Assembly: GCA_964605735.1 (NCBI GenBank)
Contig: CAZSDS010000001.1
Location: 6,771 to 70,770 of the forward strand
Reading direction: 5' to 3'
Length of the DNA stretch: 64,000 nucleotides
Source of the DNA: an uncultured Candidatus Saccharibacteria bacterium
GTDB taxonomy: Bacteria > Patescibacteriota > Doudnabacteria > UBA920 > O2-02-FULL-48-8
Program-made: the position numbers and the translations under genes
The notes under the pieces: model-generated
Database searches by the model: none
The model's input: the letters and a program-made list of their open reading frames with translations, nothing else
Told to the model about the DNA's origin: nothing
Shown here: positions 6,868 through 59,031 of the stretch, piece after piece
Layout of the letters: every line of letters starts with the position of its first letter
How positions within the stretch are numbered: the first letter of the stretch is position 1

Positions 6868-6876
6868 ATAGGTTGG

Positions 6877-7446
6877 TTAAACCTTGCGCTTTTTCTTGTT
6901 CAATAGTTCCTTGAGTTTGTTTACGGCGCGGTGCTGGATGACTCTGATGGCGCCTTCGGACTTGCTCATTATCTGAGCTATTTCAATATTTTCAAGTTCC
7001 TCAAAAAATTTATAGCGGATTACCTGCTGTTGTTCGGAAGGCAGTTCTTCAATCAGCTCCACTATGATTTTTTGTTCGATCATCAGGTTGGCTTCGTCAA
7101 TGGGGGATGAGGCGTCTTCCAGAACATCCACCACCTCTTCCAGGTCAACAGTAACTTTCTTTACCCGGTAATAGTCAATGACGTTGTTCTTTGCAATCTG
7201 GTAAAGCCAGCTGGTAAAGGCCTTTGCCGAGGAGACCTGTCCGATTTTGGTCCAGGCTTTCACAAAAGTGTCAGCCAGAATATCCTCTGCAAGTTCCCTG
7301 TGACCGACTCGGAAATATATGAATTTATAAAGCCTTTCAGCAAAGTGGTCGTAAATGAGGCCGAATGCTTCCCGGTCCATTTTTTGAGCCCTCTGAAAAG
7401 CCTCGTTTAGTTGTTGTTCGGTCATAATTTCAGACGAAATGCCCAA
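6877..7446 (-). CDS. RNA polymerase ECF-type sigma-70 family sigma factor
   Basis: 189 aa. Region 2 (FVKAWTKIGQ...WLYQIAKNNVIDYYR) and region 4 HTH (LENIEIAQIMSKSEGAIRVIQHRAVNKLKE) are typical of the sigma-24/ECF subfamily. Confidence 0.85.
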   Translation of the reverse strand: MGISSEIMTEQQLNEAFQRAQKMDREAFGLIYDHFAERLYKFIYFRVGHRELAEDILADTFVKAWTKIGQVSSAKAFTSWLYQIAKNNVIDYYRVKKVTVDLEEVVDVLEDASSPIDEANLMIEQKIIVELIEELPSEQQQVIRYKFFEELENIEIAQIMSKSEGAIRVIQHRAVNKLKELLNKKKRKV

Positions 7447-7533
7447 TATTTTGTTACAAAAGTCAACTTTATAAAGGGTTTATATATTATATCAATTTGG
7501 CCATATTTTGGGGATTTAGAAAAAGAACGCCTG

Positions 7534-7734
7534 CTAGGAGAAGGCGTTCGGGTCGAAACCGGGTGGCGGGGTAAAGCTGGATTGGCTGAGCACGTACAGT
7601 GCAATGCTTCCCAGGATGAATGCTGCTGCCAGATAGGCGGCTGCTGCGCCATCTTCATTGTGTTCGATTCTTGCTGTGCACCTTTCAAAACAGAGAATTG
7701 CTGAGCATAAAAGAATCCCGCCAAGAACCGCCAT
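7534..7734 (-). CDS. Small hydrophobic membrane protein (66 aa, 2 TM)
   Basis: ORF with two hydrophobic helices. GGAGG 12 nt upstream of the ATG. Hairpin GAACGCC...GGCGTTC plus T-run immediately after the stop on the minus strand. Confidence 0.35.
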   Translation of the reverse strand: MAVLGGILLCSAILCFERCTARIEHNEDGAAAAYLAAAFILGSIALYVLSQSSFTPPPGFDPNAFS

Positions 7735-7813
7735 GGGTTGATGTTTCCTCCGGTAAGTTGTTCTGTCAGGGGGTTATCCGCGATTTTTTCGTGAATAACT
7801 CTCTGGAGGAAAA

Positions 7814-8188
7814 TTATTTCCTCAGAATTTTTTCCATGGTTTTGCCTTTGGCCAGCTCATCAATCAGCTTGTCCATGTAGCGGATCTCTTTCATGGTTGG
7901 ATCCTTTATTTCTTCAACCCTTACTCCGCAGATCACTCCTGTGATCAAAGAGCGCGCGGGATTGAGCTTGGGTGCTTTCATCAGAAAAGTTTCAAGGTCA
8001 GTCTGCTTTTTCAGTTCTGAATCCAATCGCTTTTTGTTGTATCCGGTCAGCCAGTGAATGATTTCATCAACTTCTTTTTGAGTGCGGCCTTTTCTCTTTG
8101 CTTTGGCGATATAGAGCGGGTAAATACTTGCAAAGCTCATTGAATAGATTCTATGTTTTTTTGCGGGTGTTGTCTCTTGTTTCTTCAT
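7814..8188 (-). CDS. DUF2200 domain-containing protein
   Basis: 124 aa. The sequence ([39 protein letters not shown]) closely resembles the conserved DUF2200 family as I recall it. Confidence 0.55.
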
Positions 8189-8242
8189 AAAAAATTGATT
8201 GTTGCCAGAAATATGGGCACGAATAAATCATGAGCATATTTC

Positions 8243-8335
8243 TGGCGGAGAGGATGGGATTCGAACCCATGAGGCAGGCTATTAACCCGCCGCAGTTTAG
8301 CAAACTGCTGCCTTAAGCCACTCGGCCACCTCTCC
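8243..8335 (-). tRNA. tRNA-Ser (anticodon GCT)
   Basis: 93-nt type-II tRNA on the minus strand: acceptor GGAGAGG, anticodon stem GCAGT/ACTGC with loop TTGCTAA, long variable arm, T-loop TTCGAAT, CCA encoded. Confidence 0.85.
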
Positions 8336-8399
8336 AATATCGCGCTGCTGCGTGCCATGTTGCAGGTGTTATTCTAGCTGGAATGCGCAGGATAGTCAA

Positions 8400-9104
8400 T
8401 TATCCCTGGGCAAAAACAAGCCCCCAAACCTCTTCTGCGCCAGCCTGCTTTAAAGCCCTGCAGGCTTCGGCAAGAGTTGATCGGGTTGTTGAAACGTCGT
8501 CAACAACAATAATTCTTTTGCCTTTCAGGTTTTGGGTGGCATAAAAAGCGTTTTTTACATTCAATACACGTTCCGCGTCCTGGAGTTCTGCCTGTGTTTT
8601 TGTTTTCTTTTTCCTGACAAGCAGGTCAGGCCGCATGGTGATTTCCAGTTTTTTGGCAATGGTCCCGGCAATCAATTCCGCCTGATTAAAGCCGCGCCAG
8701 CGCTTTTTGCTTGAGTGAAGGGGGAGAGGGACCAGTAAAAATTTTTTAAGATATGCAAGCATCTCGAGATTAAGGATTTCTTCGCTCATCATTTCCCCAA
8801 GATTTGATGATATGCCTGAAATAAAACGGTACTTGCAAAATTCAACAAGCTTGCGCGCCAAGGGTTCCTTATAAGGCACGGCGCTGATCAAGCCGTCTAA
8901 CGTTTCAGGGGTTTTGCACGAAGCGTGGGTAAAGCCAAAGGGTGAAGGGCTGCCGCACGCCGGACAGAGCTGGAACTGGTTGCGCTTCAGGTTTTTTCCG
9001 CAGTGCGCGCACAAGTAACACCCTTCCGCGCCGCAGCTTATGCATTTTACCGGAAAGACCAGGTCCAGCAGTGCTTCTTTGATTGTGATGAAAGTTGTAA
9101 TCAT
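8400..9104 (-). CDS. comFC: ComF family protein (phosphoribosyltransferase-type competence protein ComFC)
   Basis: 234 aa. N-terminal double CxxC zinc finger (CISCGAEGCYLCAHCG...CPACGSP). C-terminal PRTase motif RIIVVDDVSTTRSTL. Confidence 0.8.
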   Translation of the reverse strand: MITTFITIKEALLDLVFPVKCISCGAEGCYLCAHCGKNLKRNQFQLCPACGSPSPFGFTHASCKTPETLDGLISAVPYKEPLARKLVEFCKYRFISGISSNLGEMMSEEILNLEMLAYLKKFLLVPLPLHSSKKRWRGFNQAELIAGTIAKKLEITMRPDLLVRKKKTKTQAELQDAERVLNVKNAFYATQNLKGKRIIVVDDVSTTRSTLAEACRALKQAGAEEVWGLVFAQG

Positions 9105-9204
9105 TTAAGGGAGCAAAATACCACAGAAAATATTTTATTGCCAGAGCCTGGTTGTGGACGAAAAAAACACCGGTTGTTGCCGGTGTTTTCGTTTTAAACC
9201 GTCT

Positions 9205-11790
9205 TTAAACTGTTGCCAGGTCCACTTGCTTGATTTCCAAGCCATGAGGTTTTCCAAGAATCTTTACTACAGCGCCTTCTGACAATTCGCCGCTGATTAT
9301 TTTTTCCGCCAGCGGGTCTTCGATCATTTCCTGGATGTTGCGGCGGACCAGACGGGCACCTTGGGCCGGATCAAAACTCTTTTCCGCAATGTAGCGGACA
9401 GCTTCCTTGTCTGCGGTGATTGAAAGCGTCTGATGCTTTTCAATGTGCTTGAAGGTGTTTGAAAGTTCGAGTGAAACGATTTTCTTGATCTCGTCCATGC
9501 CCAGCGGTCTGAAGACCACGATTTTGTCAATGCGGTTGAGCAGTTCAGGGCGCATGGCGTTCTTCAGCGAATCAAGCACCTGCTGTTTCACGCGGTCGTA
9601 TTCTTTTTCCGCTTTTTCGCGGGCGTCCTGGTTTTTGTCGCGCTCAGTGGTGAATCCCAAAGAGTTGGCCTGCTTGTTAAGGTCGGTGATTCCGATGTTT
9701 GAAGTCATAATAATGACTGTGTTTTTGAAGTTAACCCGTTTGCCGGCTGCGTCAGTCAAAGTTCCTTCTTCCAGAATTTGAAGCAGGATGTTGAATACGT
9801 CAGGGTGGGCTTTTTCGATTTCATCGAAAAGGATGACAGCGTATGGTTTCTTGCGAACAGCCTCGGTTAACCGGCCGCCCTCTTCATAGCCTACATATCC
9901 GGCGGGCGCGCCAATCAGCCTTGCCACGTTATGGCGTTCCATGAACTCTGACATGTCCACGCGGATTAGGGCGTCGCGGTCCTCAAAGATTTCCTGCGCC
10001 AACGCTTTTGCCGTTTCAGTTTTTCCTACGCCAGTCGGACCCAGGAACAAGAAAGAGGCGATAGGGCGTTTTGGCGAGCTGATGCCTGCACGCGACCTTC
10101 TGATTGCGGAAGCAATGGTTTTTGTTGCTTCTTCCTGTCCGATGACCCGGCTCTGCAGGATTTTCTCAAGTCCGACTAGTTTCTTGGCTTCTGATTTTAC
10201 CAGTTTGTTGAGCGGAATTTTGGTGATGGTTGAAACGGTTCGGGCGATGTCGTCCGGCGTTATGTCAATCAGGGAACCTGGTTTTCTGTTCACAATTTTC
10301 TGGTATTCCGCTTTTTGCTTTTTCAGTTTGTCTTCCTGGCTCTTCAGGTGCAGGGCAGTGGTGAAGTCCTGGAGCATTACAGCTTTGGTTTTTTCCTCTT
10401 CCAGGCGGCGGAGTTCCATTTCTATTTTCTTGACCACACGGATGTTGCGGGATTTCACGTTGATGGTTTTGGCGTAAGCTGCGGCTTCGTCAATCAGATC
10501 CAGGGCTTTATCTGGCAGGAAGCGGTCAGTCAGGTATCGCGTTGAAAGCTCCACAGAAGCTTTCAGCGCGCCTGGGGTGATATTGACGTTATGGTGTTTT
10601 TCGTACGAAGGGCGAAGTCCTTCCAGGATAAGCAAAGCTTCTTCCTGGGAAGGTTCTTCCACCAGAATTGGCTGGAAGCGTCGTTCAAGCGCGGCGTCAT
10701 GCTCAATGTGTTTTTTGTATTCAGCCAGGGTGGTTGCGCCAATGACGCGGATTTCACCGCGTGCCAGAGCTGGTTTCAAAATATTGGCGGCGTCCAGCGA
10801 GCCAGTGGTTGCGCCGGCCCCGACAATTGTATGCAATTCGTCAATAAACAAAATAACGTTCGGGTTGTCGCGGACTTCGTCAATAACCTGTTTCAGTCTT
10901 TGTTCAAACTCGCCGCGGAACATTGATCCGGCCACAATCAAAGCCATGTCCAAGGTAATGATTTTTTTGTCCAGCAATGAATCAGGCACTTCGTGTTTTA
11001 CGATAGCCAAGGCCAGGCCTTCCACGATTGCGGTTTTGCCCACGCCCGGTTCACCGATCAGCACAGGGTTGTTCTTGGTGCGGCGGTTAAGAATGCTGAT
11101 CATGCGCTCTATTTCCGCTTTGCGCCCGATGACCGGATCAATTTGGCCTTTCGAAGCTTTTTTGGAAAGGTCAGTGGTGAAGTAGTCCAGCGCCGGAGTT
11201 TTTCCCGGATTGACTGGTCTTTCTTCAACTGCCCCCATCTGTCCGTTGCCCATGCTGTTTACGCCACCCATGCTCATGTTGTTCAAATTGATGTTGCCCA
11301 ATGACTGCTCATCAATGTTGAGCAGGTCAGGGAAGCGGGAGACGTTCTCGAAGATCGCGAGCAAGTTCTTTTTCAATTCACCCGGAGAAACTTTCAGGTT
11401 CATGAGAATATGCCTGCCGTCGTTTCCTTCAATGTCTGTGATGCCATAGAGGAAGTGCTCCGTGCCAATAAACTGGTATTGGTACTTGCTGGCAATGATC
11501 GCGGATTTTTCAATAATTTCGCGCAGGTCAGTGGTCAGTTTTGGCTGCCAGCGGTCAGACATCCGGTTTTCATTCATGCGGATGATTTCTTCACGGACCA
11601 TTTCCGGGGTAATCTTGTTCTTCAGCAAAATTTCTGAGGCAAATGAAGAAATCTCCTCAATGATGCCAAAGAGAAGGTGTTCGGAGCCAATGTGGTCGTG
11701 TCTAAGATCCTCTGACAGTTTCTGCGAGGTGATCAGGGCGTTTTTTGCCCTGGAGGATAACCGTTCTAATATGAAAGAAAAATGGTTCAT
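9205..11790 (-). CDS. clpC: ATP-dependent Clp chaperone ATPase, ClpC/ClpB family (two AAA+ modules, Clp_N repeats)
   Basis: 861 aa. Two Clp_N repeats. Walker A GEPGVGKT and GPTGVGKT. Sensor motif RYLTDRFLPDKALDLIDEAAA. The short middle domain between NBD1 and NBD2 suggests ClpC rather than ClpB, but that call is uncertain. Confidence 0.9.
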   Translation of the reverse strand: MNHFSFILERLSSRAKNALITSQKLSEDLRHDHIGSEHLLFGIIEEISSFASEILLKNKITPEMVREEIIRMNENRMSDRWQPKLTTDLREIIEKSAIIASKYQYQFIGTEHFLYGITDIEGNDGRHILMNLKVSPGELKKNLLAIFENVSRFPDLLNIDEQSLGNINLNNMSMGGVNSMGNGQMGAVEERPVNPGKTPALDYFTTDLSKKASKGQIDPVIGRKAEIERMISILNRRTKNNPVLIGEPGVGKTAIVEGLALAIVKHEVPDSLLDKKIITLDMALIVAGSMFRGEFEQRLKQVIDEVRDNPNVILFIDELHTIVGAGATTGSLDAANILKPALARGEIRVIGATTLAEYKKHIEHDAALERRFQPILVEEPSQEEALLILEGLRPSYEKHHNVNITPGALKASVELSTRYLTDRFLPDKALDLIDEAAAYAKTINVKSRNIRVVKKIEMELRRLEEEKTKAVMLQDFTTALHLKSQEDKLKKQKAEYQKIVNRKPGSLIDITPDDIARTVSTITKIPLNKLVKSEAKKLVGLEKILQSRVIGQEEATKTIASAIRRSRAGISSPKRPIASFLFLGPTGVGKTETAKALAQEIFEDRDALIRVDMSEFMERHNVARLIGAPAGYVGYEEGGRLTEAVRKKPYAVILFDEIEKAHPDVFNILLQILEEGTLTDAAGKRVNFKNTVIIMTSNIGITDLNKQANSLGFTTERDKNQDAREKAEKEYDRVKQQVLDSLKNAMRPELLNRIDKIVVFRPLGMDEIKKIVSLELSNTFKHIEKHQTLSITADKEAVRYIAEKSFDPAQGARLVRRNIQEMIEDPLAEKIISGELSEGAVVKILGKPHGLEIKQVDLATV

Positions 11791-37961: not shown

Positions 37962-37990
37962 CACTGGCAACCGCCAGTGTTTTTTGTTAT
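37962..37990 (+). terminator. Intrinsic terminator after rplY
   Basis: ACACTGGC-AACC-GCCAGTGT hairpin followed by TTTTTGTT. Confidence 0.65.
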
Positions 37991-38011
37991 AGTTGTTTTA
38001 GGGAGGGAGCA

Positions 38012-38707
38012 ATGGTTTTTGGCCAGAGGCAGGTGGTCGTCGGCCATTTTTTTGAGCAGGTTGCTCACACAGTTTTTGGCGGTGAGTTGTGCCGCAACGA
38101 CGACGGCGATATTTGCATCTGGAAGACTGGAACGACTATCGAGGTTAAATCCTCTTATCTGCAGTCCTCTTATGGGATCCGGTGTGATTTGGATCAGATG
38201 GAGAAGTACAAGAGGCGATTGCCGTTCCCGTTTTCCCACGCACACTACGTGTTCTTCGGGTATGACAACCCGCGGGACAAGAGCACCAAGTCAAACACCA
38301 TGGCAGTCCATAAGACCGAAAGCGCCATCAGCAGGTATTTGGCAAAGTCGGTGAGATGGTGCCTGGTTTTTGATTATTCGATTGTTCTCAGGTGGAAGGA
38401 GGTCATAGAAACGTCTGATCGCAGCATCCTTGGCCACAAAGGCACGCTGTCAGTGGATCTGAAGTGGCAGGAGCTGTTGGTGTACGCCAATGGCGGGCTC
38501 GGGCACAAATTGCGCCTTTTGGGCCTTGATCCTGAAGATTACACAGTGTTGTCTGGTCAGACGCAAATAAGGAAGGAATTTGACCTTTTTGGCAGGAAAC
38601 CGGTGAGCTTTGAAATAAAAATGGTTCTGCCCAAAAAGGTCGCCTCTAAATTCCAAAAGCGGATGAAACGGCGAGGAGTCGCCCTGTCCGCGTCCCGGCC
38701 TGCGTGA
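38012..38707 (+). CDS. Hypothetical protein with possible PD-(D/E)xK nuclease-like motif
   Basis: 231 aa. Strong RBS GGGAGGGAG. Candidate D...E-x-K core in NDDGDICIWKTGTTIEVKSS. Basic C-terminus. Isolated between a terminator and convergent prmC. Confidence 0.5.
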   Translation: MVFGQRQVVVGHFFEQVAHTVFGGELCRNDDGDICIWKTGTTIEVKSSYLQSSYGIRCDLDQMEKYKRRLPFPFSHAHYVFFGYDNPRDKSTKSNTMAVHKTESAISRYLAKSVRWCLVFDYSIVLRWKEVIETSDRSILGHKGTLSVDLKWQELLVYANGGLGHKLRLLGLDPEDYTVLSGQTQIRKEFDLFGRKPVSFEIKMVLPKKVASKFQKRMKRRGVALSASRPA

Positions 38708-48045: not shown

Positions 48046-48131
48046 GGGCAGATGGTAGAGCGGTCAATTACACCAGACTGTAAATCTGGCGCCATTCGGC
48101 TACGCAGGTTCGAATCCTGCTCTGCCCACCA
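48046..48131 (+). tRNA. tRNA-Tyr (anticodon GTA)
   Basis: 86-nt type-II tRNA starting 1 nt after tRNA-Thr. Acceptor GGGCAGA/TCTGCCC. Anticodon stem CCAGA/TCTGG with loop CTGTAAA. Long variable arm. T-loop TTCGAAT. CCA encoded. Confidence 0.85.
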
Positions 48132-48133
48132 TA

Positions 48134-48160
48134 GAAAAAAACCGACTTTGGTCGGTTTTT
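48134..48160 (+). terminator. Intrinsic terminator after the tRNA-Thr/Tyr pair
   Basis: ACCGAC-TTTG-GTCGGT followed by TTTTTTT. Confidence 0.7.
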
Positions 48161-48190: not shown

Positions 48191-48313
48191 GGGCAGAAGT
48201 GAGACAAGTCGGTGAGCGACGATGCCGAACGTCGAAAAATGTACAGTGTACATTTTTCGCTGCCCTGTCTACGCCAGTTGCAACGAGCGTTGAGAATCCT
48301 GCTCTGCCCACCA
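48191..48313 (+). pseudogene. Degenerate tandem tRNA-Tyr-like copy (123 nt) with internal 23-nt perfect palindrome and its own hairpin/T-run
   Basis: Starts with the same acceptor 5' half GGGCAGA and ends GAATCCTGCTCTGCCCACCA, identical to the tRNA-Tyr 3' end, followed by ATAGAAAAA. The T-loop is altered (TTGAGAAT) and the body carries AAAAATGTACA-G-TGTACATTTTT. The flanks repeat TTTTTCTATT(A)TGTAGAC (48156-48176 and 48344-48360). Confidence 0.45.
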
Positions 48314-48928
48314 TAGAAAAATTCCTCACCGAAAGGTGGGGAATTTTTCTATTTGTAGACTTTTATGACTTTGCATAAAAATATGCTTTCAGGTGTGTGC
48401 ATTTTGAGACCTTGACTTCTTTCATAAAGCATGGTAATCTTATACACCACACATCCAAAGAGGAGGAATTCGTTGTTGAGGCGACAGCTCCGTTTGATGC
48501 CTATGGTGGGAAGGGGTATTCTCCACATAACCTAAATGCTACCGGGGCAGGTGCATGATTGTGGAAATATCCTGAGCCAAGTGTGCTCGCGTAGAGTGGT
48601 CGTCTCCTTGTGCCGGGTACAGAAGACTTGCTTTTATAATGGTGCTGAGTGACACCCAAAATTGCAAGGAGTTTGGCCTATACTGGTTGAGCAGGGCCTA
48701 CCGATCGTCCGATCGCGGATCTCTGCAATAAAGCCGGACAGCCACCTTCTGTTAGGGATTGTTGGGAATCACATTTCCGAGCTGAATCCCACAACAGTTC
48801 TAATCCCCGGTACACGTCTTTTTTCCGCCCTTGCCGCCTTTAGGTCAGGGCTTTTTATTTTCATGTTATTTGTGTTATAATAATTCCGAAGAATAGTCGG
48901 CTTCGAAACAAATTATTTAATAAAACAT

Positions 48929-49327
48929 ATGGAACCCAGCGAAACACGTGTTTTGATTGTGGAAGACGAAGAAATCCTGCTTACAGCCCTCTCTGAGGAG
49001 TTGAAACAGGAAGGTTTTCAGGTGCTTGGCGCCAAAGACGGGGCTGAAGGAGTGGAGAAGGCCAAGTCCGAAAAACCTGACCTGATCCTGCTTGATTTGG
49101 TAATGCCTCGCTTGGACGGAATTGGTGCACTGAAACTTCTGAAAGAAGGGGAAGAAACCAAGGATATCCCTGTGGTCATCCTCACCAATTTGTCAGACTA
49201 TGACAAAATTTCCGACGCTCTTTCGTTAGGCGCTATGGATTATCTGGTCAAAGCGAACTACCGGTTGGAAGAACTCGTCAATAAGATAAAGACTGTTTTG
49301 GAACGCCAGACGCCAACAGCCGCTTAA
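48929..49327 (+). CDS. Response regulator, receiver (CheY-like) domain only
   Basis: 132 aa. Phospho-acceptor context (DLILLDLVMPRLDG) and T/K motifs (ILTNLSD ... YLVKAN). Confidence 0.8.
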   Translation: MEPSETRVLIVEDEEILLTALSEELKQEGFQVLGAKDGAEGVEKAKSEKPDLILLDLVMPRLDGIGALKLLKEGEETKDIPVVILTNLSDYDKISDALSLGAMDYLVKANYRLEELVNKIKTVLERQTPTAA

Positions 49328-52852: not shown

Positions 52853-53011
52853 ATGTCACAAGACAATATGATTTCGCTGGAATGCACGGTTTGCAAGCAC
52901 GTGAACTACAACTCACGAAAAAACAAAAAACTTATCCCTAACCGCCTGGTTATGGAAAAGTTTTGCAAATGGTGCAAGAAGCACACTGAACACAAAGAAA
53001 CCAAGAAATAA
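52853..53011 (+). CDS. rpmG: 50S ribosomal protein L33 (zinc-ribbon type)
   Basis: 52 aa, below the 60-aa ORF track cutoff. [18 protein letters not shown]...[22 protein letters not shown] matches the L33 C4 zinc-ribbon pattern. ATG at 52853 preceded by a purine-rich stretch. Confidence 0.75.
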
Positions 53012-53080: not shown

Positions 53081-53764
53081 ATGACCAAAACTTTGGATTT
53101 CAAATTGAAAGTTATTCGTAAAAGAGCTGAAGGGTATTCCATCAACGAGTTGGCGAAACAGTTCCATATATCAAAGAGTACAGTATCGCTGTGGGTCAGG
53201 GACACGCCTGTCACTGAGACAGGAATGCAAAGACTGACCTCCAGAATCCCAAAGGGACCTATAGTTTCAGGTTTACGAAGGAAGGCAAGGTCAAATGCTC
53301 TTAGGAGATTGTATTTTGAAAGCGCCAAAATTGAGACTGTGAAGAATAGACTAGATTCATTTTCGCAGAAACTAGTTTGTGCAATGATTTATTGGTGCGA
53401 AGGCGCGAAAAAAGATGACCAAGTTAGGTTTACAAATTCTGATCCCGACCTAACTCGGAAATTTATTGATTTGCTGGAGAAAGAATTCTGTGTGAAAAGA
53501 TATAGGATAAAATGTAGGCTTCACTTGCACTCCTACCATAGCAATGAAGAGCTTCACCGTTGGTGGTCTGGTAAGCTGAATATTGGGTTGACGCAGTTTC
53601 AAAAACCTTATTTGAAATTAAATGGCGGCCAGCGAATAAGGTTAGGTTATCCGGGTTGTGTGCATATAAGTTACTATGATACCATAGTGGCTAGGAGATT
53701 GTTATTTTTAGCGAAAGCTTATTTAGAAAAGGGATTTGTGTCTGATAATGGGGGCATAGTGTAA
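53081..53764 (+). CDS. HTH-domain protein with possible LAGLIDADG-type homing-endonuclease-like C-terminal domain (COG3780-like)
   Basis: 227 aa. N-terminal HTH (YSINELAKQFHISKSTVSLWV). Candidate single LAGLIDADG-like motif (VCAMIYWCEGAKKD). The last 15 nt overlap the 5' end of tRNA-Trp. Confidence 0.5.
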   Translation: MTKTLDFKLKVIRKRAEGYSINELAKQFHISKSTVSLWVRDTPVTETGMQRLTSRIPKGPIVSGLRRKARSNALRRLYFESAKIETVKNRLDSFSQKLVCAMIYWCEGAKKDDQVRFTNSDPDLTRKFIDLLEKEFCVKRYRIKCRLHLHSYHSNEELHRWWSGKLNIGLTQFQKPYLKLNGGQRIRLGYPGCVHISYYDTIVARRLLFLAKAYLEKGFVSDNGGIV

Positions 53765-53823
53765 CGGTAGCACAACGCTCTCCAAAAGCGTTTGTTGAGG
53801 TTCAAATCCTCATGCCCCTGCCA
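53750..53823 (+). tRNA. tRNA-Trp (anticodon CCA)
   Basis: 74 nt. Acceptor GGGGGCA/TGCCCCT. Anticodon stem ACGCT/AGCGT with loop CTCCAAA. T-arm TGAGG-TTCAAAT-CCTCA. Discriminator G. CCA encoded. Confidence 0.85.
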
Positions 53824-53830
53824 ACAAAGG

Positions 53831-53880
53831 ACATTAGCTAAACCTGCCTGCCGGTAGGCAGGGCTAGTGTTTTTTGTTAT
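53831..53880 (+). repeat. Cassette-boundary element copy 0 (split version): CATTAGC / GCTAGTG arms separated by a 24-nt insert hairpin, then TGTTTTTTGTTAT
   Basis: GGACATTAGC-taaaCCTGCCtgccggtaGGCAGG-GCTAGTGTTTTTTGTTAT directly 3' of tRNA-Trp. Probably also the tRNA terminator. Confidence 0.6.
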
Positions 53881-54076
53881 TCTAATCTTATGCAAAAGAG
53901 AGACTTCGGAGTTATTTTCTGGATGCACTTGATTTTGATTTTCGCGATTTACAGTTCGCCATTTTGGCTTAGCTGGAAAATAATTTTATTTTTTGTTGGA
54001 CTATATTACTTGCAGCTTTTGATATTCAAGAACTGCGTTCTCACACCCAGCGGATGAAATATTTTACGAACACTTT

Positions 54077-54571
54077 ATGAAACACCTCAATGAAAACGAA
54101 TCTAAAGAAGCTCTAAAATGGATTGATTTAGCTGCTGAAGTTGCTAATCAATCACCTTGCTTGCGAGCACATTGTGGCGCAGTTATTGTTAAAGATGTGA
54201 AGGTGATTGGAAAGGGGTTTAATTCGCCACCACAAAATAATCCAGAATTTAGAACTTGTTTGAACGAATACGATATCCCTGCTGGATTCAGGCATGATCG
54301 TACTTGTTGTATCCATGCTGAGCAAAGAGCTATCACAGATGCCATCAGGCAAGGGCATGACACAAAGGGAGCAAAGATTTATTTCGTTCGAACAGATGAA
54401 TCGGGAAATAAATTAAATGCATCAAGATTAGTGTGCACGATTTGCAGCAGAGCAGTTTTAGATGCGGGTATAGTCGAATTCATATTGTATTGGGAAGATG
54501 GCATAAGAAGTTATAATACAAAAGAATTTAACGAAGGGTCATATGCCTATATGACTCCTTCAGTTTCATAG
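54077..54571 (+). CDS. CMP/dCMP deaminase zinc-binding family protein (dCMP deaminase-like)
   Basis: 164 aa. HAEQRAI (H-A-E) and CTICSRAV (PCxxC-type) zinc ligands. ComEB-like size. Confidence 0.75.
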   Translation: MKHLNENESKEALKWIDLAAEVANQSPCLRAHCGAVIVKDVKVIGKGFNSPPQNNPEFRTCLNEYDIPAGFRHDRTCCIHAEQRAITDAIRQGHDTKGAKIYFVRTDESGNKLNASRLVCTICSRAVLDAGIVEFILYWEDGIRSYNTKEFNEGSYAYMTPSVS

Positions 54572-54670
54572 CTTGAGTATCGCACGAGATAGAGTTACCA
54601 CAGCTTCTGTAAAAACACCTTCAATTATTATCGTTTGTCGAAAACTAATAGTCTTTGTTATGCTATTTCC

Positions 54671-55378
54671 ATGAAGATAAAGTTGGGTTTTTCTACGGGG
54701 ACGTTATATAAACATCTTAAAACTAAAGATGCTTTGTTGGCTATTAGAAAAGCGGGGATTGTTGGGGTAGAGTTAGGATTTGTTAAAGCCCTGGATGAGG
54801 ATTGGTTATCTAACGTTGTTGCTTCAGAGCTTGAAGAATTTGAGTATGTTAGTATGCATGCTCCAAAGTTCGAATACGATGACAATACTGCAAGTTACTC
54901 GATTCTGCAAAAAATTGCGCAGTTCCATACAAGTATAAGAAAACTCGATACAGTTGTTTTCCACCCAGATCCTATTAAGAATTTTTCCGTATTATCCAAA
55001 GCGGGTATCCCCGTAGCAATTGAGAACATGGATAATCGTAAACCTTCGTTTCAAAACCCTTTTGAGCTAATAAAGATTTTAGATAAATTCCCGGAATTTA
55101 AAGTTGTGCTTGATGTTAATCATATATTTTCAAATGATTCATCTATGAGGCTGGCCGAAGAATTTTACCGTCTGTTAGGCGATAAAATAGTCCAGATTCA
55201 TTTAAGCGGGTATGCCGGGTACCATGAACCATTATTCGAAACTGAACAGCAGCAGATTTTTAAATCTATTCAAAATTTAAAAACTCCAATCATTGTCGAA
55301 AGCGTACTGCCACCAGAAGACTTGGATAAGGAAAAAAACTATATTCTTAATCTGGCTAAAAATATTAGCGGAAGCTAG
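54671..55378 (+). CDS. Sugar phosphate isomerase/epimerase (xylose isomerase-like TIM barrel)
   Basis: About 235 aa from MKIKLGFSTG. Metal-ligand-like residues (VSMHAPKFEY, AIENMDNRK, VLDVNHIF, QIHLSGY). Ends with the shared N-I-S-G-S-stop tail. Confidence 0.6.
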   Translation: MKIKLGFSTGTLYKHLKTKDALLAIRKAGIVGVELGFVKALDEDWLSNVVASELEEFEYVSMHAPKFEYDDNTASYSILQKIAQFHTSIRKLDTVVFHPDPIKNFSVLSKAGIPVAIENMDNRKPSFQNPFELIKILDKFPEFKVVLDVNHIFSNDSSMRLAEEFYRLLGDKIVQIHLSGYAGYHEPLFETEQQQIFKSIQNLKTPIIVESVLPPEDLDKEKNYILNLAKNISGS

Positions 55379-55392
55379 TGTTTTTTGTTATG
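55360..55392 (+). repeat. Cassette-boundary element copy 1: TATTAGC-GGAA-GCTAGTG hairpin plus TTTTTTGTTATGC
   Basis: Overlaps the last five codons and the stop of the TIM-barrel ORF. GNRA tetraloop. T-run. 8 nt before the next ATG. Confidence 0.65.
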
Positions 55393-55400
55393 CTTCTCGC

Positions 55401-56087
55401 ATGGAAACATCAATCATCATTAGAATAAAAAACGAAGCAGAGAACTTACGTAGATTACTGGAAATACTACAAAAGCAGGACTACCAGAACTTTGAGATAA
55501 TACTTGTGAATGATAATTCAAAAGATGGTAGCGAGCTTGTATTAAAGGATTTCTTCGATGCGACAAGATTCAAGGTCGTAAATTTGGAAAGAAAGTTCGA
55601 TTATGCCTACGCATCTAATTTTGGAGCCACTAATTCTTCAGGAAAGTACTTGGTGTATCTGAGCGCGCATTCCTTTCCAATATCCACCAGCTGGTTGTCA
55701 GCTGGAATAAAGCATTTCCAGAACGAGAAAGTTGCTGGAGTTTTTGCTTATCCCTTAGCAAATCCAGAAGCAAACCTCATCGAAAGAATTATTTTCACTG
55801 GCTACACAAAATTAGCCCACTCGAAACGGAAAGAATATAGAGAAGTAAGTATGGGGGTTCTTGGATCGACCAACGCGATTTACAGAAAAGATCTTTGGGA
55901 ATTGCACAATTTTTCAGAAAGACACGCTCACGGTGGAGAAGATTATGAATGGGCTTTACACTGGACAGCAAAAGATTATGTAATCATTCATGACCCTGCG
56001 TTTAGAGTCTATCATTCACATAACCTCAATCCGTTAGGTTTGATAAAGCAATATTTTCGTTGGAGAGAGATGACGAAGCCAAGATGA
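55401..56087 (+). CDS. Family-2 glycosyltransferase (single domain)
   Basis: About 228 aa from METSIIIRIKNE. VNDNSKDGS. DxD-like context. No TM. Confidence 0.65.
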   Translation: METSIIIRIKNEAENLRRLLEILQKQDYQNFEIILVNDNSKDGSELVLKDFFDATRFKVVNLERKFDYAYASNFGATNSSGKYLVYLSAHSFPISTSWLSAGIKHFQNEKVAGVFAYPLANPEANLIERIIFTGYTKLAHSKRKEYREVSMGVLGSTNAIYRKDLWELHNFSERHAHGGEDYEWALHWTAKDYVIIHDPAFRVYHSHNLNPLGLIKQYFRWREMTKPR

Positions 56088-56113
56088 TCCAAGCTTCATA
56101 CCGCAGCCTTCAA

Positions 56114-56521
56114 CTATTCTTCGTAATTCCCTGAAGACTCTGGCTGGTAAAGAATCTCTTTTATAGTGTAAGTTTTGATTCCTCCGGGAACTTCCCAGTC
56201 GATATTCTGACCAACTCTCTCACCAAGAATAGCTGTCCCAACTGGAGCCAAAACCGAAATCTTCCCAGAGCTAATATCAGCCTCGTCTGGGTAAACCAAC
56301 TGGATCGTTATTTCTTTTCCATGATCATCTGCAAGCAGCACTTTAGATCTCATGCTGATTACATCGCCCGGAATATCTTTAGGTTCAACAACTTGCGCTT
56401 TATCAAGCTCTTCTTTTAACAACTCAATGTATTTATGGTTTCTCGAATCTTTGTACGAAGAATTGACGACCTCCCTCAAGCGCTCTAAATCAAGTTTCGT
56501 AATGTATATGGTTTTGCTCAT
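56114..56521 (-). CDS. GreA/GreB-family protein lacking the N-terminal coiled coil (Rnk-like)
   Basis: 135 aa. C-terminal FKBP-like Gre domain sequence (ISVLAPVGTAILGERVGQNIDWEVPGG). Confidence 0.65.
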   Translation of the reverse strand: MSKTIYITKLDLERLREVVNSSYKDSRNHKYIELLKEELDKAQVVEPKDIPGDVISMRSKVLLADDHGKEITIQLVYPDEADISSGKISVLAPVGTAILGERVGQNIDWEVPGGIKTYTIKEILYQPESSGNYEE

Positions 56522-56616
56522 ATTTATTCTTAATCTCGCATAGTTATTCTAAGCATCTTACACCTTAAACCGAACCGAAGCAATAGGTAGCTAATACCTA
56601 TGTTTTTTGTTATTCT

Positions 56617-57066
56617 TTGACCATGGATAAGCAAAATGTCAGAGTTGGAATAGGGGTATTTATCTTCAAAGATGGTAAGTTCCTTATGGGTCAAAGGAAA
56701 AATGCACACGGAGATGGAACTTGGTCAGTGCCTGGTGGTCATTTGGAATTCGGCGAATCATTTTCAGATACGGCAATCCGCGAAGCAAAAGAAGAAACCA
56801 ACTTGGATATTACAAATGTCAGGTTCGGGGCAGTCACTAATGACTATTTTGAAATTGAAGGAAAGCACTACGTTACAGTATGGATGTTGAGTGATTATAA
56901 ATCTGGAGATGTTAAGATTATTGAACCTGATAAGTTTGTTAAGATGGAGTGGCGTGATTTCAAAAATCTTCCAGAGCCGCTCTTCCAACCTTGGAAACAA
57001 TTGTTAAAATCGGAATTTATTGAAAAAATTAAATCTTCATTAAATCAAAACATTAGCGAAAGCTAG
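56617..57066 (+). CDS. NUDIX hydrolase
   Basis: 149 aa. Nudix box GGHLEFGESFSDTAIREAKEETNL. Ends with the N-I-S-E-S-stop tail. Confidence 0.8.
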   Translation: MTMDKQNVRVGIGVFIFKDGKFLMGQRKNAHGDGTWSVPGGHLEFGESFSDTAIREAKEETNLDITNVRFGAVTNDYFEIEGKHYVTVWMLSDYKSGDVKIIEPDKFVKMEWRDFKNLPEPLFQPWKQLLKSEFIEKIKSSLNQNISES

Positions 57067-57082
57067 TGTTTTTTGATATGCT
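57048..57082 (+). repeat. Cassette-boundary element copy 2: CATTAGC-GAAA-GCTAGTG hairpin plus TTTTTTGATATGC
   Basis: Overlaps the terminal codons and stop of the NUDIX ORF. Confidence 0.65.
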
Positions 57083-57125
57083 TTTCGTATATTCAAAATT
57101 TTATAAATTCGGGTAAGAATACCAC

Positions 57126-58016
57126 ATGAGCGACTCTAGAGAAAAAGACTTTTTTACCTATGGACCAGTGCATTTGGAAGTTACTGACGGTGAAAAATCA
57201 GTTCGTTTTTGGCGTGACATTCTGGGGCTGACATTACGCAAGGAAGGTGGAGAAATTGAACTCGGTACATCAGAAAGGACCTTGGTAGTTTTGCATCCGG
57301 TAGCCAGGCGTCCTTTCATGCAGGGCCACAGCGGACTTTATCATTTGGCTATACACATGCCAACAGAGCCGGAATTCGCCAGGGTACTTGCCAGGCTCAT
57401 TTCTAAAAATTACCCAATTGCCCCAACTGACCACATCATGTCTAAATCGATTTACATGGAGGATCCGGATGGTATTACAGTTGAAATTACATTGGAGACA
57501 ATCAACCGATTCGGTTCATATGACATAACTGAAGAAAATTTCAGGGTTATTGATTCTGAAGGTCGCGAGCGCGGCATGACCGAGGCTCTTGATGTCCGGG
57601 AAGTGCTTGCCACGCTTTCGGACAATGATTTGGATAAGCCTTTTCCACCTGACACTTACATTGGGCACGTCCATCTTTACGTTGGTGACCTGAAAGCCGC
57701 GTACGAGTTCTACCAGAATCTTGGTTTTCTCCCAAACCTGTTCACGCCATTTGGTTTTGCTGATTTGAAGGCAGGGGGAATCTTCCCGCACCGTCTTGCC
57801 GTTAACACATGGCAGGGAGTGGGTGCTCCGCCAGCCCCGGAAGGTACTGCAGGTCTGAAGCATTTCATTTTAAACTTTAAGTCTGCTGATTTCTTAAAAA
57901 ATGCATTGGCTGGAATGCCTGAAGCCAAAAAAACAGACAAAGGACATATTGTAACCGACCCATCCGGGAACAATATACTTTTGGTTGCAGAAGAAAAGGA
58001 CATTAGCGCGAGCTAA
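57126..58016 (+). CDS. VOC (glyoxalase/bleomycin-resistance/dioxygenase) superfamily protein, two-domain
   Basis: 296 aa. Two beta-alpha-beta-beta-beta modules with His/Glu metal-ligand candidates (VHLEV, HLAIHM, HVHLYV). Ends with the D-I-S-A-S-stop tail. Confidence 0.65.
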   Translation: MSDSREKDFFTYGPVHLEVTDGEKSVRFWRDILGLTLRKEGGEIELGTSERTLVVLHPVARRPFMQGHSGLYHLAIHMPTEPEFARVLARLISKNYPIAPTDHIMSKSIYMEDPDGITVEITLETINRFGSYDITEENFRVIDSEGRERGMTEALDVREVLATLSDNDLDKPFPPDTYIGHVHLYVGDLKAAYEFYQNLGFLPNLFTPFGFADLKAGGIFPHRLAVNTWQGVGAPPAPEGTAGLKHFILNFKSADFLKNALAGMPEAKKTDKGHIVTDPSGNNILLVAEEKDISAS

Positions 58017-58030
58017 TGTTTTTTGTTACC
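57996..58030 (+). repeat. Cassette-boundary element copy 3: CATTAGC-GCGA-GCTAATG perfect 7-bp hairpin plus TTTTTTGTTACC
   Basis: Overlaps the terminal codons and stop of the VOC ORF. GNRA loop. T-run. Confidence 0.65.
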
Positions 58031-58057
58031 ATTTAAACATAATTTAAACGCAAAAAT

Positions 58058-58468
58058 ATGGATATCAATTTTTGGGCTGTAGTAGTCTCTGCTTTGGCCT
58101 CAATGGTCATTGGCAGTATCTGGTTTGGTCCTTTGTTTGGGAGGATGTTTATGGATGTTTCAGGGCTCTCAAAGATGACTCCTGAACAGCGTGCTGAAGC
58201 ACAGAAAGCCATGGGTATGTCTTATATGATCCAGGCTGCGGCAAGTCTGGTTATGTTTTATGTTCTGGCCCGCTTTATTTCAGGGATGGACGAAATGACC
58301 CTGCAGGGCGGTCTTATGACAGCATTATGGATTTGGATAGGGTTTATAGTGCCAATGAAAATTGGTGACGCCATCTGGGGCGGCAGCTGGAAGCTTTCAG
58401 CGCTCATTGCAGGCAACAGCCTGGTTACGCTTCTGGTCACAGGAGCAATTCTTGGCAGCTGGAAATAG
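58058..58468 (+). CDS. DUF1761-like small membrane protein
   Basis: 136 aa. 3-4 hydrophobic helices. Conserved-looking GxxWFGP motif (GSIWFGPLFG). Confidence 0.45.
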   Translation: MDINFWAVVVSALASMVIGSIWFGPLFGRMFMDVSGLSKMTPEQRAEAQKAMGMSYMIQAAASLVMFYVLARFISGMDEMTLQGGLMTALWIWIGFIVPMKIGDAIWGGSWKLSALIAGNSLVTLLVTGAILGSWK

Positions 58469-58506
58469 TTTGCGACTTTTAAAATAAAACTTGTTATAAT
58501 ATTTCC

Positions 58507-58920
58507 ATGAAAGAACCAATTACAATAGAAACAACAATCAATGCCCCGATTGAAAAAATCTGGGAGTACATGAATAATCCTGAGCACATCACTAAGTGGT
58601 GTTTTGCACAGGATGACTGGCACGCGCCACGGGCTGAAAACGATCTTAGGGTCGGTGGGAAGTTACTGACCAGAATGGAAGCAAAAGACGGCAGTTTTGG
58701 CTTTGATTTTGGTGGAACATATACTGCAGTAGAAGAAAACAAGTTGATTGAATATGTATTGGGCGACGGCCGCAAGGTTAAAGTGGAGTTTATCAAAGAA
58801 CCTGAAGCGTATCGGGTGGTTCAAACTTTTGACCCAGAAGATCAGAACACAAGAGAGAAACAAAGAGAAGGCTGGCAGGCGATACTCGATAACTTCAAAA
58901 AGCACGTAATAAATAATTAG
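58507..58920 (+). CDS. SRPBCC superfamily protein (AHSA1/Aha1-like activator-of-Hsp90-ATPase domain)
   Basis: 137 aa. Pattern EPITIETTINAPIEKIWEYMNNPEHITKW typical of the AHSA1/START-like fold. Hairpin terminator GGCGGTTC-ATA-GAACCGCC plus T5 at about 58942-58968. Confidence 0.6.
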   Translation: MKEPITIETTINAPIEKIWEYMNNPEHITKWCFAQDDWHAPRAENDLRVGGKLLTRMEAKDGSFGFDFGGTYTAVEENKLIEYVLGDGRKVKVEFIKEPEAYRVVQTFDPEDQNTREKQREGWQAILDNFKKHVINN

Positions 58921-59031
58921 CCTTGGTTGATTAGAGTGAAGGCGGTTCATAGAACCGCCTTTTTGAGCCTATAGCTATAAAAAAAATGAGCTTTCTGGTA
59001 AACTAAAAAAGCAACAGTTAACATAAAGAAC

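Follow-up and report, generated by a model that had tools for sequence, protein, structure and literature searches.

Integrons, including the sedentary chromosomal ones and clusters of attC sites lacking an integrase (CALINs), hold co-oriented units in tandem, most of them single genes whose accessory functions are unrelated. A small palindromic site, in which open reading frames (ORFs) can end, borders each unit; array content differs between relatives and the same cassette is met in different arrays. The attC sites are imperfect palindromes of ~57-141 nt with R''-L''/L'-R' boxes (RYYYAAC ... GTTRRRY), an unpaired central spacer and extrahelical bases. Genomic islands, cis-mobilisable elements (CIMEs) and integrative mobilisable elements (IMEs) enter the 3' part of tRNA genes and leave direct repeats that run from the T-loop to beyond the 3' end; successive insertions give tandem arrays, inserted elements can be devoid of an integrase of their own, and CIMEs and IMEs are mobilised in trans by the tyrosine integrases of integrative conjugative elements or prophages. 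In Patescibacteria (candidate phyla radiation, CPR), which have very small genomes and depend on hosts, the gain and shuffling of accessory genes are poorly understood. Here, we analysed a 64,000-nt stretch of such a genome (hereafter 'the window'), in which a short hairpin followed by a run of T residues recurs behind the tRNA-Trp gene and separates small genes of unrelated function. We interpret the segment from 53.8 to 58.9 kb as an accretion array in which small cassettes, carrying accessory genes and no integrase, are anchored to tRNA-Trp at its 3' flank, and put the probability of this reading at roughly 0.6. The array is a variant of the tRNA-anchored island or cassette array, integron-like in layout but not an integron.

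A sequence-only reading of this DNA had placed the repeated element at 55360-55392, 57048-57082 and 57996-58030, and pattern search, repeat finding, folding and a covariance model all recover it there: CATTAGC-N4-GCTARTG followed by six T residues (T6) lies at 55363, 57051 and 58001, with T6-G directly 3' of each of these copies 1-3. The hairpins of the window are as follows.

53824-53876 (+): copy 0, with leader ACAAAGGAC, composite hairpin and T6-G; outer arms CATTAGC (53832-53838) and GCTAGTG (53863-53869), inner GC-rich hairpin 53843-53862.
55363-55401 (+): copy 1, TATTAGC (55363-55369), loop GGAA, GCTAGTG (55374-55380), T6, TGTTATGCT, 6 nt and the ATG of a glycosyltransferase gene; covariance model 52.3 bits.
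56583-56623 (+): variant-stem copy, ATAGGTA-GCTAA-TACCTAT, T6, TGTTATTCT, 6 nt and the ATG of a NUDIX gene; fold -8.7 kcal/mol, z -2.0; covariance model 18 bits, E 0.057.
57051-57090 (+): copy 2, CATTAGC (57051-57057), loop GAAA, GCTAGTG (57062-57068), T6, TGATATGCT and ATA at the start position; covariance model 53 bits.
58001-58025 (+): copy 3, CATTAGC (58001-58007), loop GCGA, GCTAATG (58012-58018) and T6-G; covariance model 49.2 bits.
37962-37992 (+; hairpin to 37986): outlying copy with the compensatory stem CACTGGC-AACC-GCCAGTG and T6-GTTA; -18.9 kcal/mol; covariance model 36.7 bits.

The element consists of a 7-bp stem and a 4-nt loop (18 nt, or ~34 nt with its A- and T-runs) and has no bulged bases. 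Folding energies of the three simple copies are -12.3 to -14.6 kcal/mol (z -4.1 to -5.3), and copies 1 and 2 are 89% identical across 44 nt. With up to three mismatches, CATTAGCNNNNGCTARTGTTTTTTG has seven matches on both strands of the window against 0.01 expected, and the 3' half GCTARTGTTTTTTGWTA has five against 0.07. Repeat finding independently returned a 44-nt family of six copies (53848, 54629, 55359, 56581, 57047 and 57997), and a covariance model built from 54 copies found elsewhere, run across all 64 kb with filters off, gave copies 0-3, the variant-stem copy (match from 56579) and the outlying copy (match from 37953) and no further ones, five of these six inside 4.2 kb. No Rfam family corresponds to the hairpin: only tRNAs were matched at E<=1 across the island and at gathering score across the window. 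The variant-stem copy at 56583, noticed before as AGGTA-GCTAA-TACCT, indeed has no gene on the same strand directly upstream. The outlying copy lies 3' of an L25-like ORF (called by eye from its translation) and 5' of an orphan 231-aa ORF (38012-38707) without a Pfam or NCBIfam match; the two may form a solitary cassette outside the array.

Two supposed copies had to be reinterpreted. The site at about 54640, taken for a degenerate hairpin, does not fold (-2.2 kcal/mol, z +0.3 for 54625-54665; covariance model 9.8 bits) and shares only the promoter half of the junction described below. Copy 0 had been viewed as a site split locally. It is rather a composite hairpin (-28.1 kcal/mol, z -5.6; covariance model 32 bits, with an insertion), whose inner helix stacks on the outer arms, and because the same composite form with a CCTGCCTGCCGGTAGGCAGG-like inner extension is present in other genomes (loci L072, L028 and L088; L-numbers denote the loci recovered as described below), it was not interrupted here. 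Two independent short-read assemblies (SRR7082976 and SRR7082966), otherwise 100% identical to the window, each end inside copy 0, with breaks at window positions 53850-53869 (ends of L136 and L137, start of L069); composite-hairpin repeats or population heterogeneity at the junction could account for these breaks.

As had been proposed, the boundary element is built like an intrinsic terminator: its stem-loop is stable, is followed by T6, the future U-tract, and sits at the end of a unit, behind tRNA-Trp or an ORF. A generic terminator scan catches only copy 0, by its inner hairpin, and copy 3, on the reverse strand, as the stems are AT-rich. Could the island then be an ordinary, vertically inherited cluster whose lineage favours this terminator, the similar gene ends being coincidental? 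The terminator anatomy and position fit, the element follows many unrelated genes and tRNAs, and some tRNA-His/hairpin/gene arrangements look syntenic across genomes. We nevertheless regard this explanation as very improbable: the other six tRNAs of the window are followed by unrelated, mostly GC-rich terminators and the backbone genes by similarly diverse GC-rich hairpins, the recurrence far exceeds expectation, five of the six modelled copies crowd into 4.2 kb of low-GC DNA, and the content behind tRNA-Trp differs between relatives, in which tRNA remnants mark insertions. The fear that the element is merely a common genome-wide terminator proved half justified, as it is widespread, yet clustered both here and in other arrays.

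The units between these hairpins are listed below; the earlier gene calls (TIM barrel, NUDIX, VOC and others) hold up against Pfam.

53750-53823 (+): tRNA-Trp (CCA) with encoded CCA end, head of the array (ARAGORN; Rfam tRNA model, 65 bits).
53875-54571 (+): unit 0, TGTTATTCT-N6-ATG (promoter pattern), a 55-aa ORF (53890-54057) and a dCMP/cytidine deaminase (54077-54571; Pfam dCMP_cyt_deam_1, 7.7e-13).
54655-55378 (+): unit 1, promoter half TTGTTATGCTATTTCCATG without a hairpin, then a xylose-isomerase-like TIM-barrel ORF (54671-55378; Pfam AP_endonuc_2).
55401-56521: unit 2, a family 2 glycosyltransferase (GT2; 55401-56087, +; Pfam Glycos_transf_2, 1.3e-24) and an Rnk/GreA-like factor (56114-56521, -; Pfam GreA_GreB and Rnk_N).
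56623-57066 (+): unit 3, a NUDIX hydrolase (Pfam NUDIX, 1.7e-21) whose C-terminus SSLNQNISES-stop lies within copy 2.
57126-58016 (+): unit 4, a VOC/glyoxalase protein with two domains (Pfam Glyoxalase).
58058-58468 (+): unit 5, DUF1761 (Pfam).
58491-58920 (+): unit 6, a promoter-only junction TTGTTATAATATTTCCATG at 58491 (read from the sequence), then an AHSA1/SRPBCC protein (58507-58920; Pfam).
About 58931-58957: island end, a terminator-like GC-rich hairpin, followed by the backbone malic enzyme gene at 59032 (sequence and GC profile).

GC content is 38-40% at 53-57 kb and 43% at 57-59 kb, compared with 46% for the window. The low-GC island is thus compositionally foreign and built of small, separately bounded units. 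The absence of secE-nusG behind rpmG/tRNA-Trp, previously taken as a sign of an insertion hotspot, is not informative, since these genes were not noticed either in the downstream sequence read of six rpmG-tRNA-Trp relatives (L021, L030, L033, L056, L078 and L139), in which they were not specifically searched for.

The hairpin is one half of a ~45-nt junction module; the other half is TGTTATNCT-N6-ATG. Directly after the T-run, TGTTAT(G/T)CT with an ATG exactly 6 nt further on occurs at 53875, 54656, 55386, 56608 and 58492, so that the TTGTTAT..ATG context formerly noted at next-gene starts finds its place as the promoter half of the module. Among plausible gene starts in the window with TGnTAnnnT-N(4-9)-ATG, five of seven fall between 53875 and 58492. 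At copy 2 decay has turned the downstream ATG into ATA; the VOC gene relies on a second signal of this kind, 45 nt further on. By standard promoter rules, TG plus a -10 box makes an extended -10 promoter, which yields leaderless mRNA when placed at the start codon. Judged by its sequence, TGTTATNCT would be such an extended -10 box with a leaderless start, and the module would end transcription with its hairpin and start it again with its box. In line with this spacing, an ORF of at least 60 aa begins exactly 15 nt after the first five T residues of the T-run, i.e. 6 nt after the -10 box, at 32 of the 102 sites known to us.

The hairpin also reaches into the genes before it. The stop codons (TAG or TAA) of the TIM-barrel, NUDIX and VOC ORFs sit in the 3' arms of copies 1, 2 and 3, and the three unrelated proteins end in NISGS, NISES and DISAS, respectively, i.e. 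in the shared (N/D)ISxS-stop tail that had first drawn attention to the locus. In the VOC protein, the last ~9 residues (AEEKDISAS) are encoded by the AAAGGAC leader plus copy 3 and are missing from all 12 homologues inspected; TIM-barrel homologues mostly align only up to query residues ~225-230 of 235. Similarity among NUDIX orthologues stops just after the '..IK' codons, beyond which the tails differ: in L142 the tail is again encoded by a hairpin (NASES, arm CGCTAGC), while in L008 and L143 it comes from unrelated sequence. The common tail is a by-product of ORF ends fused to the hairpin, since the conserved part of the unit stops short and the ORF runs on into the next hairpin, which offers TAG in two of three frames.

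To learn whether such units occur elsewhere, we collected loci by hairpin. An exact-pattern scan of one genome per species gave 68 loci and a metagenome scan 66 more, together 102 distinct sites, most of them in metagenome-assembled genomes labelled Patescibacteria; taxon labels were taken from record titles. The NUDIX gene of the window has orthologues with 80-86% aa identity, and these lie in five different neighbourhoods:

Window: Rnk upstream, VOC downstream.
L008: a second NUDIX upstream, an amidase downstream.
L142: an unknown region upstream, a 150-aa ORF downstream.
L143: a 99-aa ORF upstream, a 189-aa ORF downstream.
P0349 contig: rplU, DUF6864 and an 86-aa ORF upstream, RecR downstream.

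At all four NUDIX loci with readable DNA, a hairpin, T6, a TG-extended -10 and a leaderless ATG precede the gene; in L008, L142 and L143 the hairpin occupies the same place as the variant-stem copy in the window. Similarity among the four DNAs starts at the hairpin/T-run and not earlier. Module-plus-gene units hence occupy different neighbourhoods in different genomes.

This result bears on the idea that the hairpin itself, with or without its promoter, is mobile in the manner of repetitive extragenic palindromic (REP) sequences or miniature inverted-repeat transposable elements and was inserted between, or into the 3' ends of, pre-existing genes. A near-perfect palindrome of 34 nt with several copies per genome suits such an element, and so do the replaced or extended native C-termini of three ORFs, the NUDIX orthologues with and without a downstream copy, and the often identical copies within one array (GAAA loops in 5/5 copies of L100, TCAA loops in 3/4 of L033). 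We consider it quite improbable, however: the genes themselves move, as the NUDIX gene does and as do the kinase and glycosyltransferase genes of L033 and the HAD gene of L078, which are not at the tRNA-Trp loci of relatives. The island is of foreign composition, there are neither target-site duplications nor a GTAG-type REP head, no Y1/RAYT or DDE transposase is found among the 155 ORFs scanned, and random insertion would hardly place the element so regularly 9 nt behind the CCA of many tRNAs. REP sequences, their composites (bacterial interspersed mosaic elements, BIMEs) and the uptake-sequence pairs of Neisseria and Pasteurellaceae are likewise short conserved palindromes that lie 3' of genes in several copies and are able to act as terminators or RNA stabilisers. 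They differ from the present element in number (hundreds to thousands genome-wide, against ~6 clustered copies in 64 kb); here, moreover, the consensus has no GTAG head, no RAYT/Y1_Tnp is among the ORFs scanned, and the hairpin is coupled to a predicted promoter and leaderless start and tied to tRNA ends and variable genes. A DNA-uptake sequence was set aside, as the copy number is far too low and the copies are clustered.

The content behind tRNA-Trp varies: across relatives zero, one, two or four genes, differing from each other, follow this tRNA. L030 reads tRNA-Thr, rpmG, tRNA-Trp, hairpin, tRNA-Cys, with no gene between tRNA-Trp and tRNA-Cys. Its relative L033, which has the same flanks, carries ~4.1 kb with four single genes between tRNA-Trp and the last hairpin: a 201-aa ORF, two APH-like kinases and a group-1/4 glycosyltransferase (APH and GT1/GT4 assigned from the matches listed for the ORF set that includes these ORFs), with a hairpin copy after each, one of them decayed. 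L074 has an L030-type tRNA-Trp, the hairpin and then the glycosyltransferase cassette of L033. In L078, a relative of the window (77% nucleotide identity over tRNA-Thr-rpmG), tRNA-Trp is followed by an intact hairpin, a promoter, a HAD hydrolase, a decayed repeat of the tRNA-Trp 3' end and a terminator of another kind. Behind tRNA-Trp, L021 holds three to four mini-cassettes; a tRNA-Trp 3' remnant with an A-run/hairpin/T-run closes each of them, and the last of these hairpins is of the type studied here. In L056 an insert of two ORFs behind tRNA-Trp ends with remnant plus hairpin. The varying cassette content expected by the sequence-only reading was thus found (none in L030, one in L074, four in L033, HAD in L078), and since content differs between relatives, the same genes in the same order, which would have spoken against insertion, are not what these loci show.

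Arrays behind other tRNAs have the same build. L100 shows five hairpins in 3 kb between NUDIX, an unknown ORF, NERD, CopC-cupredoxin and DUF4037, L124 four hairpins behind tRNA-His-type remnants, and L072 an array behind tRNA-His that includes a composite hairpin like copy 0. Direct repeats of tRNA 3' ends occur in the arrays of L021, L056, L078, L100, L124 and L072. The remnants match the kind of tRNA that heads the array and differ from it in allele, which suggests that the units came from other genomes. At a tRNA-Asn locus, L109 reads tRNA, hairpin, gene X; on the related contig of L111/L128, one insert lies between the tRNA and a remnant plus hairpin, and a second insert between two hairpin copies. 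In these loci, then, the duplicated boundary can be either the tRNA 3' end or the hairpin.

Three side observations concern these relatives. L030 and L033 have wholly different tRNA-Trp alleles (6225-6298 and 1059-1132, respectively) despite ~85-90% identical flanks, which looks like a replacement of the entire tRNA gene along with the cassettes behind it. On the 3.2-kb contig L123, two identical segments of remnant, hairpin and downstream DNA form a large inverted repeat (1279-2346), which may be a real duplication or a palindromic artefact of assembly. The closest VOC homologue (60% identity) lies on a 253-kb contig (L138; Logan SRR10663361) at ~5500-10900, amid dense small accessory genes (DUF1801 twice, CutA1, NUDIX, glyoxalase-like, OmdA and RibD_C); we considered this neighbourhood as another such array, but the hairpin module is not present in it, so that similar cargo also accumulates without the module.

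The hairpin belongs to a family with a wide distribution. The consensus of 98 distinct sites is ccaACAAAaaAC-ATTAGC-gAAA-GCTAGTG-TTTTTT-GTTAt, with the ATG at a fixed distance. Matches to the wobble arm plus T6-G(T/A)T were found in metagenome-assembled genomes (MAGs) labelled Doudnabacteria, Magasanikbacteria, Saccharibacteria, Berkelbacteria and Patescibacteria, besides a few labels that look wrong; most matches in records other than the Patescibacteria-like ones are perfect palindromes, and their contexts are unrelated. The wobble-form copies occur in these positions:

Directly after an intact tRNA: 24 (His 9, Trp 6, Asp 3, Asn 3, Gly 3, Glu 1).
After a CCA-like end, many of them recognisable tRNA 3' remnants: 51.
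After protein-coding sequence: 42.

Many copies are placed 9 nt past the CCA of tRNA genes (His, Trp, Asp, Asn, Gly and Glu). The element is therefore not an att site peculiar to the tRNA-Trp terminator, as first supposed: the family follows at least six kinds of tRNA and many protein genes under several Patescibacteria lineage labels. At the free stem position, G (giving a G.U wobble) is found in 30 of 42 copies in module context compared with 8 of 37 elsewhere, and the stem variants at 37962 and in L142 keep base pairing; this asymmetry and the pairing-preserving changes point to selection on the folded strand. Together with the T-run, the conserved strand asymmetry would favour a role at the RNA level over that of a regulon operator. 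The T6-GTTA context carries other stems too, none of which is recurrent. A phage or viral origin was rejected, with 0 matches of the exact pattern in IMG/VR viral contigs. A full-text literature search, including by sequence, did not find the element, CPR terminators, CPR leaderless promoters or CPR cassette arrays described; the sole candidate paper for the element concerns an unrelated repeat gene.

Some records with the Patescibacteria-type tRNA-hairpin module are labelled Binatia, Verrucomicrobiia or Gammaproteobacteria (L003, L005, L008, L020 and L045, from DASPNG01; L050, from DASPKQ01; L017, L031, L032, L042, L046 and L054). These labels look like binning or classification errors; DASPNG01 (L008) is 77% identical to the window in nucleotides over the NUDIX gene.

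Insertion at tRNA 3' ends has independent evidence within the same genome. At the 3' end of tRNA-Tyr, a perfect 28-nt direct repeat, GAATCCTGCTCTGCCCACCATAGAAAAA, at 48112-48139 and 48294-48321 (+) encloses a 154-nt insert without an ORF. The repeat spans the T-loop to 8 nt past the CCA; the hairpins behind its two copies differ and are both followed by TTTTTCTATTnTGTAGACT. This arrangement resembles an att-type duplication whose insert is minimal or decayed. The ~550 nt from the tRNA-Tyr region to a response-regulator gene (48360-48930) hold no convincing ORF; an RNase P RNA was considered for this gap, which has no Rfam match even at E<=1 and thus lends it no Rfam support.

How close is the array to an integron? 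It shares all traits of layout named at the outset as well as similar kinds of cargo, so the earlier comparison with integrons and successive cassettes stands as far as layout and varying content are concerned. It fails for intI, attC architecture and a shared promoter. There is no intI by the array, among the window ORFs scanned or near the ~100 sites. The 18-nt hairpin (34 nt with A/T runs) has AAC/GTT triplets only and no attC architecture, as judged by the definition of attC, without running an attC model. Each unit has its own predicted promoter, whereas integron cassettes rely on Pc, and the array is anchored at tRNA genes, with tRNA 3' remnants at many boundaries.

A true integron-like system would require a recombinase encoded elsewhere that uses the folded or duplex hairpin as both attI and attC, with circular single-gene cassettes and a defined crossover, e.g. 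at G|TT after the 3' arm. The nearly invariant stem with varying loops, the AAC/GTT that flank a 6-bp stem core, the conserved G.T wobble and the co-oriented arrays of single-gene units in several genomes would all be expected of it. So would ORFs that end inside the site, as in many integron cassettes, the start of NUDIX similarity at the 3' arm/T-run boundary, and cargo (NUDIX, VOC, SRPBCC, kinases, methyltransferases) that resembles that of chromosomal integrons. We still think this system unlikely. No recombinase lies beside any array, is among 20 window ORFs or recurs among 135 neighbouring ORFs; the site is far smaller than attC and has no extrahelical bases or R/L boxes; and every unit appears to have its own promoter. 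About half of the boundaries in relatives carry homotypic tRNA 3' remnants, which points to the tRNA, rather than the hairpin, as crossover region, and at one locus both flanking copies share a rare TTTC loop, which a duplication of the resident site fits better than an exchange. Loop sequences are otherwise uninformative as crossover markers, differing even between copies with 97% identical flanks.

The recombinase search behind these statements had a defined scope. Pfam was run on 20 window ORFs (10 of the island and 10 further unassigned ones; the remaining window ORFs were judged housekeeping by eye from their translations) and found no Phage_integrase, resolvase or transposase, which agrees with the earlier statement that the window has no tyrosine or serine recombinase. 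Among 135 non-redundant ORFs within 5 kb of hairpins, Pfam found no recombinase family with two or more members, and all-against-all BLAST clustering of 2,974 ORFs from 135 loci gave no shared neighbour family except housekeeping genes. A recurrent neighbouring enzyme was rejected on these grounds.

Compared with tRNA-targeted islands, the single-gene units, at 0.5-1.7 kb, fall well below the usual island size, none of the arrays shows an integrase, hairpins but no tRNA sequences are repeated in the tRNA-Trp array of the window, and the same hairpin module, a conserved terminator-promoter junction, stands at six different tRNAs. The pdif modules of Acinetobacter plasmids and other users of Xer recombinases are also small recombinase-less gene modules with short palindromic sites, which an enzyme encoded elsewhere moves from replicon to replicon, and the hairpin with its flanks can be read as 11-6-11 nt. 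It bears no resemblance to known dif sites, however, its copies are direct and not alternately inverted, and it has terminator anatomy (A-run/T-run and an RNA-level wobble).

How might units be added without an integrase at hand? In our proposal, the first half of the junction, an AT-rich tetraloop hairpin of 7-8 bp with A-run and T6, would serve as Rho-independent terminator for the upstream tRNA or gene, and the second half, TGTTATNCT 6 nt before the ATG, would start the leaderless mRNA of the next gene from an extended -10, making each cassette its own transcription unit. The module family would circulate among Patescibacteria with the genes headed by it, and units would stack in tandem behind tRNA genes. 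A circular or incoming unit would recombine where it matches the chromosome, in the tRNA 3' end (T-loop onward) or in the module, and the event would duplicate the matching sequence. The outcome would be boundaries of tRNA remnant plus hairpin, as in relatives and at tRNA-Tyr, and hairpin-only boundaries, as in the window array. The enzyme may act in trans and be a tyrosine integrase from elsewhere that targets the tRNA T-loop, or host RecA working on shared stretches of 30-75 nt, the only ones conserved between diverged genomes. The anatomy of the module, the distribution of its family, the variable content, the presence of one unit in several contexts and the two kinds of duplicated boundary are observed; the entry of units as circles or incoming DNA, the direction of events, the recombination mechanism and a trans-acting enzyme are what we infer from them. 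The homotypic tRNA remnants and the flanking copies with the same rare loop argue for duplication of resident sequence.

Several points weigh against the accretion array. Stops inside the hairpin are rare, with 4 of 102 sites and just 2 outside the window, and the interpretation that units have no stop codon of their own rests mainly on the NUDIX gene. Terminator and promoter functions are read from sequence only; the stem holds only 3 G-C pairs, and terminator function alone leaves a near-invariant stem across very different lineage labels unexplained. Some of those labels are evidently wrong (Binatia), and collecting loci by a hairpin search biases the frequency of arrays upwards. Upstream of the window copies, no tRNA-Trp remnant was found with up to 3 mismatches, so that the route by tRNA integration is shown just for relatives and tRNA-Tyr; candidate remnants from local alignments had p = 0.02-0.6 (uncorrected, 6 tests), not significant after correction, and only the AAAGGAC leader before copy 3 is shared. 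Neither an excised circle, nor a same-species empty-site allele, nor a recombinase was seen; exact-protein look-ups with NUDIX, rpmG, malic enzyme and VOC returned no strain variants of the species, only contigs 100% identical to the window.

A broader and only tentative proposal makes the array part of a Patescibacteria gene-capture platform, in which the ~34-nt terminator hairpin with its leader would be the recombination site for promoter-bearing single-gene cassettes, an independent analogue of the integron. Cassettes would be inserted, excised and exchanged between lineages by a recombinase encoded elsewhere or a host enzyme, at a site usually 9 nt behind a tRNA. If this is true, a portable terminator-promoter junction would let tiny genomes add ready-to-express genes with neighbours left undisturbed, with tRNA flanks as docking sites, and a dedicated recombinase, if it exists, would be a second, independent invention of the integron principle. 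With a single 40-nt covariance model, islands and variable accessory genes would be found across thousands of CPR MAGs. Extended -10 promoters with leaderless starts, and terminators conserved in sequence, are suggested as CPR transcription signals, and the module is a candidate insulating expression part for the few engineerable CPR strains.

A further gene lies directly before the array and had been named as its possible actor:

53081-53764 (+): ORF with a helix-turn-helix (HTH) and a single LAGLIDADG-like domain, between rpmG (52853-53011) and tRNA-Trp, its last 15 nt overlapping the tRNA 5' end.

In LAGLIDADG homing endonucleases the fold is alpha-beta-beta-alpha-beta-beta-alpha, and an acidic residue closes the motif helix. 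The AlphaFold2 model of this ORF has a pLDDT of 92, E107-G108-x-K110 is invariant in 35 homologues, and its structural match is a LAGLIDADG-like fold, the best one being WhiA, a non-catalytic regulator; there is no Pfam LAGLIDADG match, the Foldseek result is not significant and DSSP gives fewer strands than expected. The family (~220 aa) has only Patescibacteria among its source-named members. Homologues adjoin tRNA genes in L139 (5001-5669), L104 (844-1521), L135 (786-1316) and L097 (620-1273). In L139, labelled Parcubacteria, the ORF has the same place and the same 15-nt overlap with tRNA-Trp, the stop lying in both genomes within the D-arm region, and within the tRNA Leu-Val-Phe-Gly cluster the position of the homologue differs between relatives, as for free-standing homing endonuclease genes. 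Like those enzymes, of which segB of phage T4 is an example, HTH-LAGLIDADG-like and GIY-YIG ORFs sit amid tRNA genes in varying positions; here, the loci are bacterial and chromosomal, the activity is predicted only and the ORFs are not consistently at arrays.

Homing could in principle spread cassettes by co-conversion: HTH-LAGLIDADG or GIY-YIG enzymes encoded at tRNA 5' ends would cut endonuclease-less alleles, and repair from the donor would copy the endonuclease gene, the tRNA allele and the downstream cassettes. The fold and invariant motif of the ORF, its overlap with tRNA-Trp here and in L139, the changing place of homologues in the Leu-Val-Phe-Gly cluster, the GIY-YIG ORFs that adjoin tRNA-Asn and tRNA-Glu ahead of insertions and the exchange of the whole tRNA-Trp allele between the close relatives L030 and L033 are compatible with this course. 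It is scarcely credible as the general route, however, as the arrays of L021, L033, L056, L078, L100 and L124 have no such ORF nearby, no insertion follows the tRNA in L104, L135 and L097 although the ORF is there, and nuclease activity is a prediction from a model whose best structural match is non-catalytic. The ORF that had been suspected of driving the array thus probably has a LAGLIDADG-like fold; since it is missing from these six arrays, it is not needed in cis, and we treat it as a neighbour of the accretion array and a separate mobile layer rather than its engine. At four loci (L028 579-845, L034 4413-4658, L085 1610-1873 and L104 1652-1999), a small GIY-YIG ORF (81-115 aa) adjoins or overlaps a gene for tRNA-Asn, tRNA-Glu or tRNA-Gly at its 5' end, and at three of the four a hairpin follows 160 nt to 2 kb further downstream, behind an insertion.

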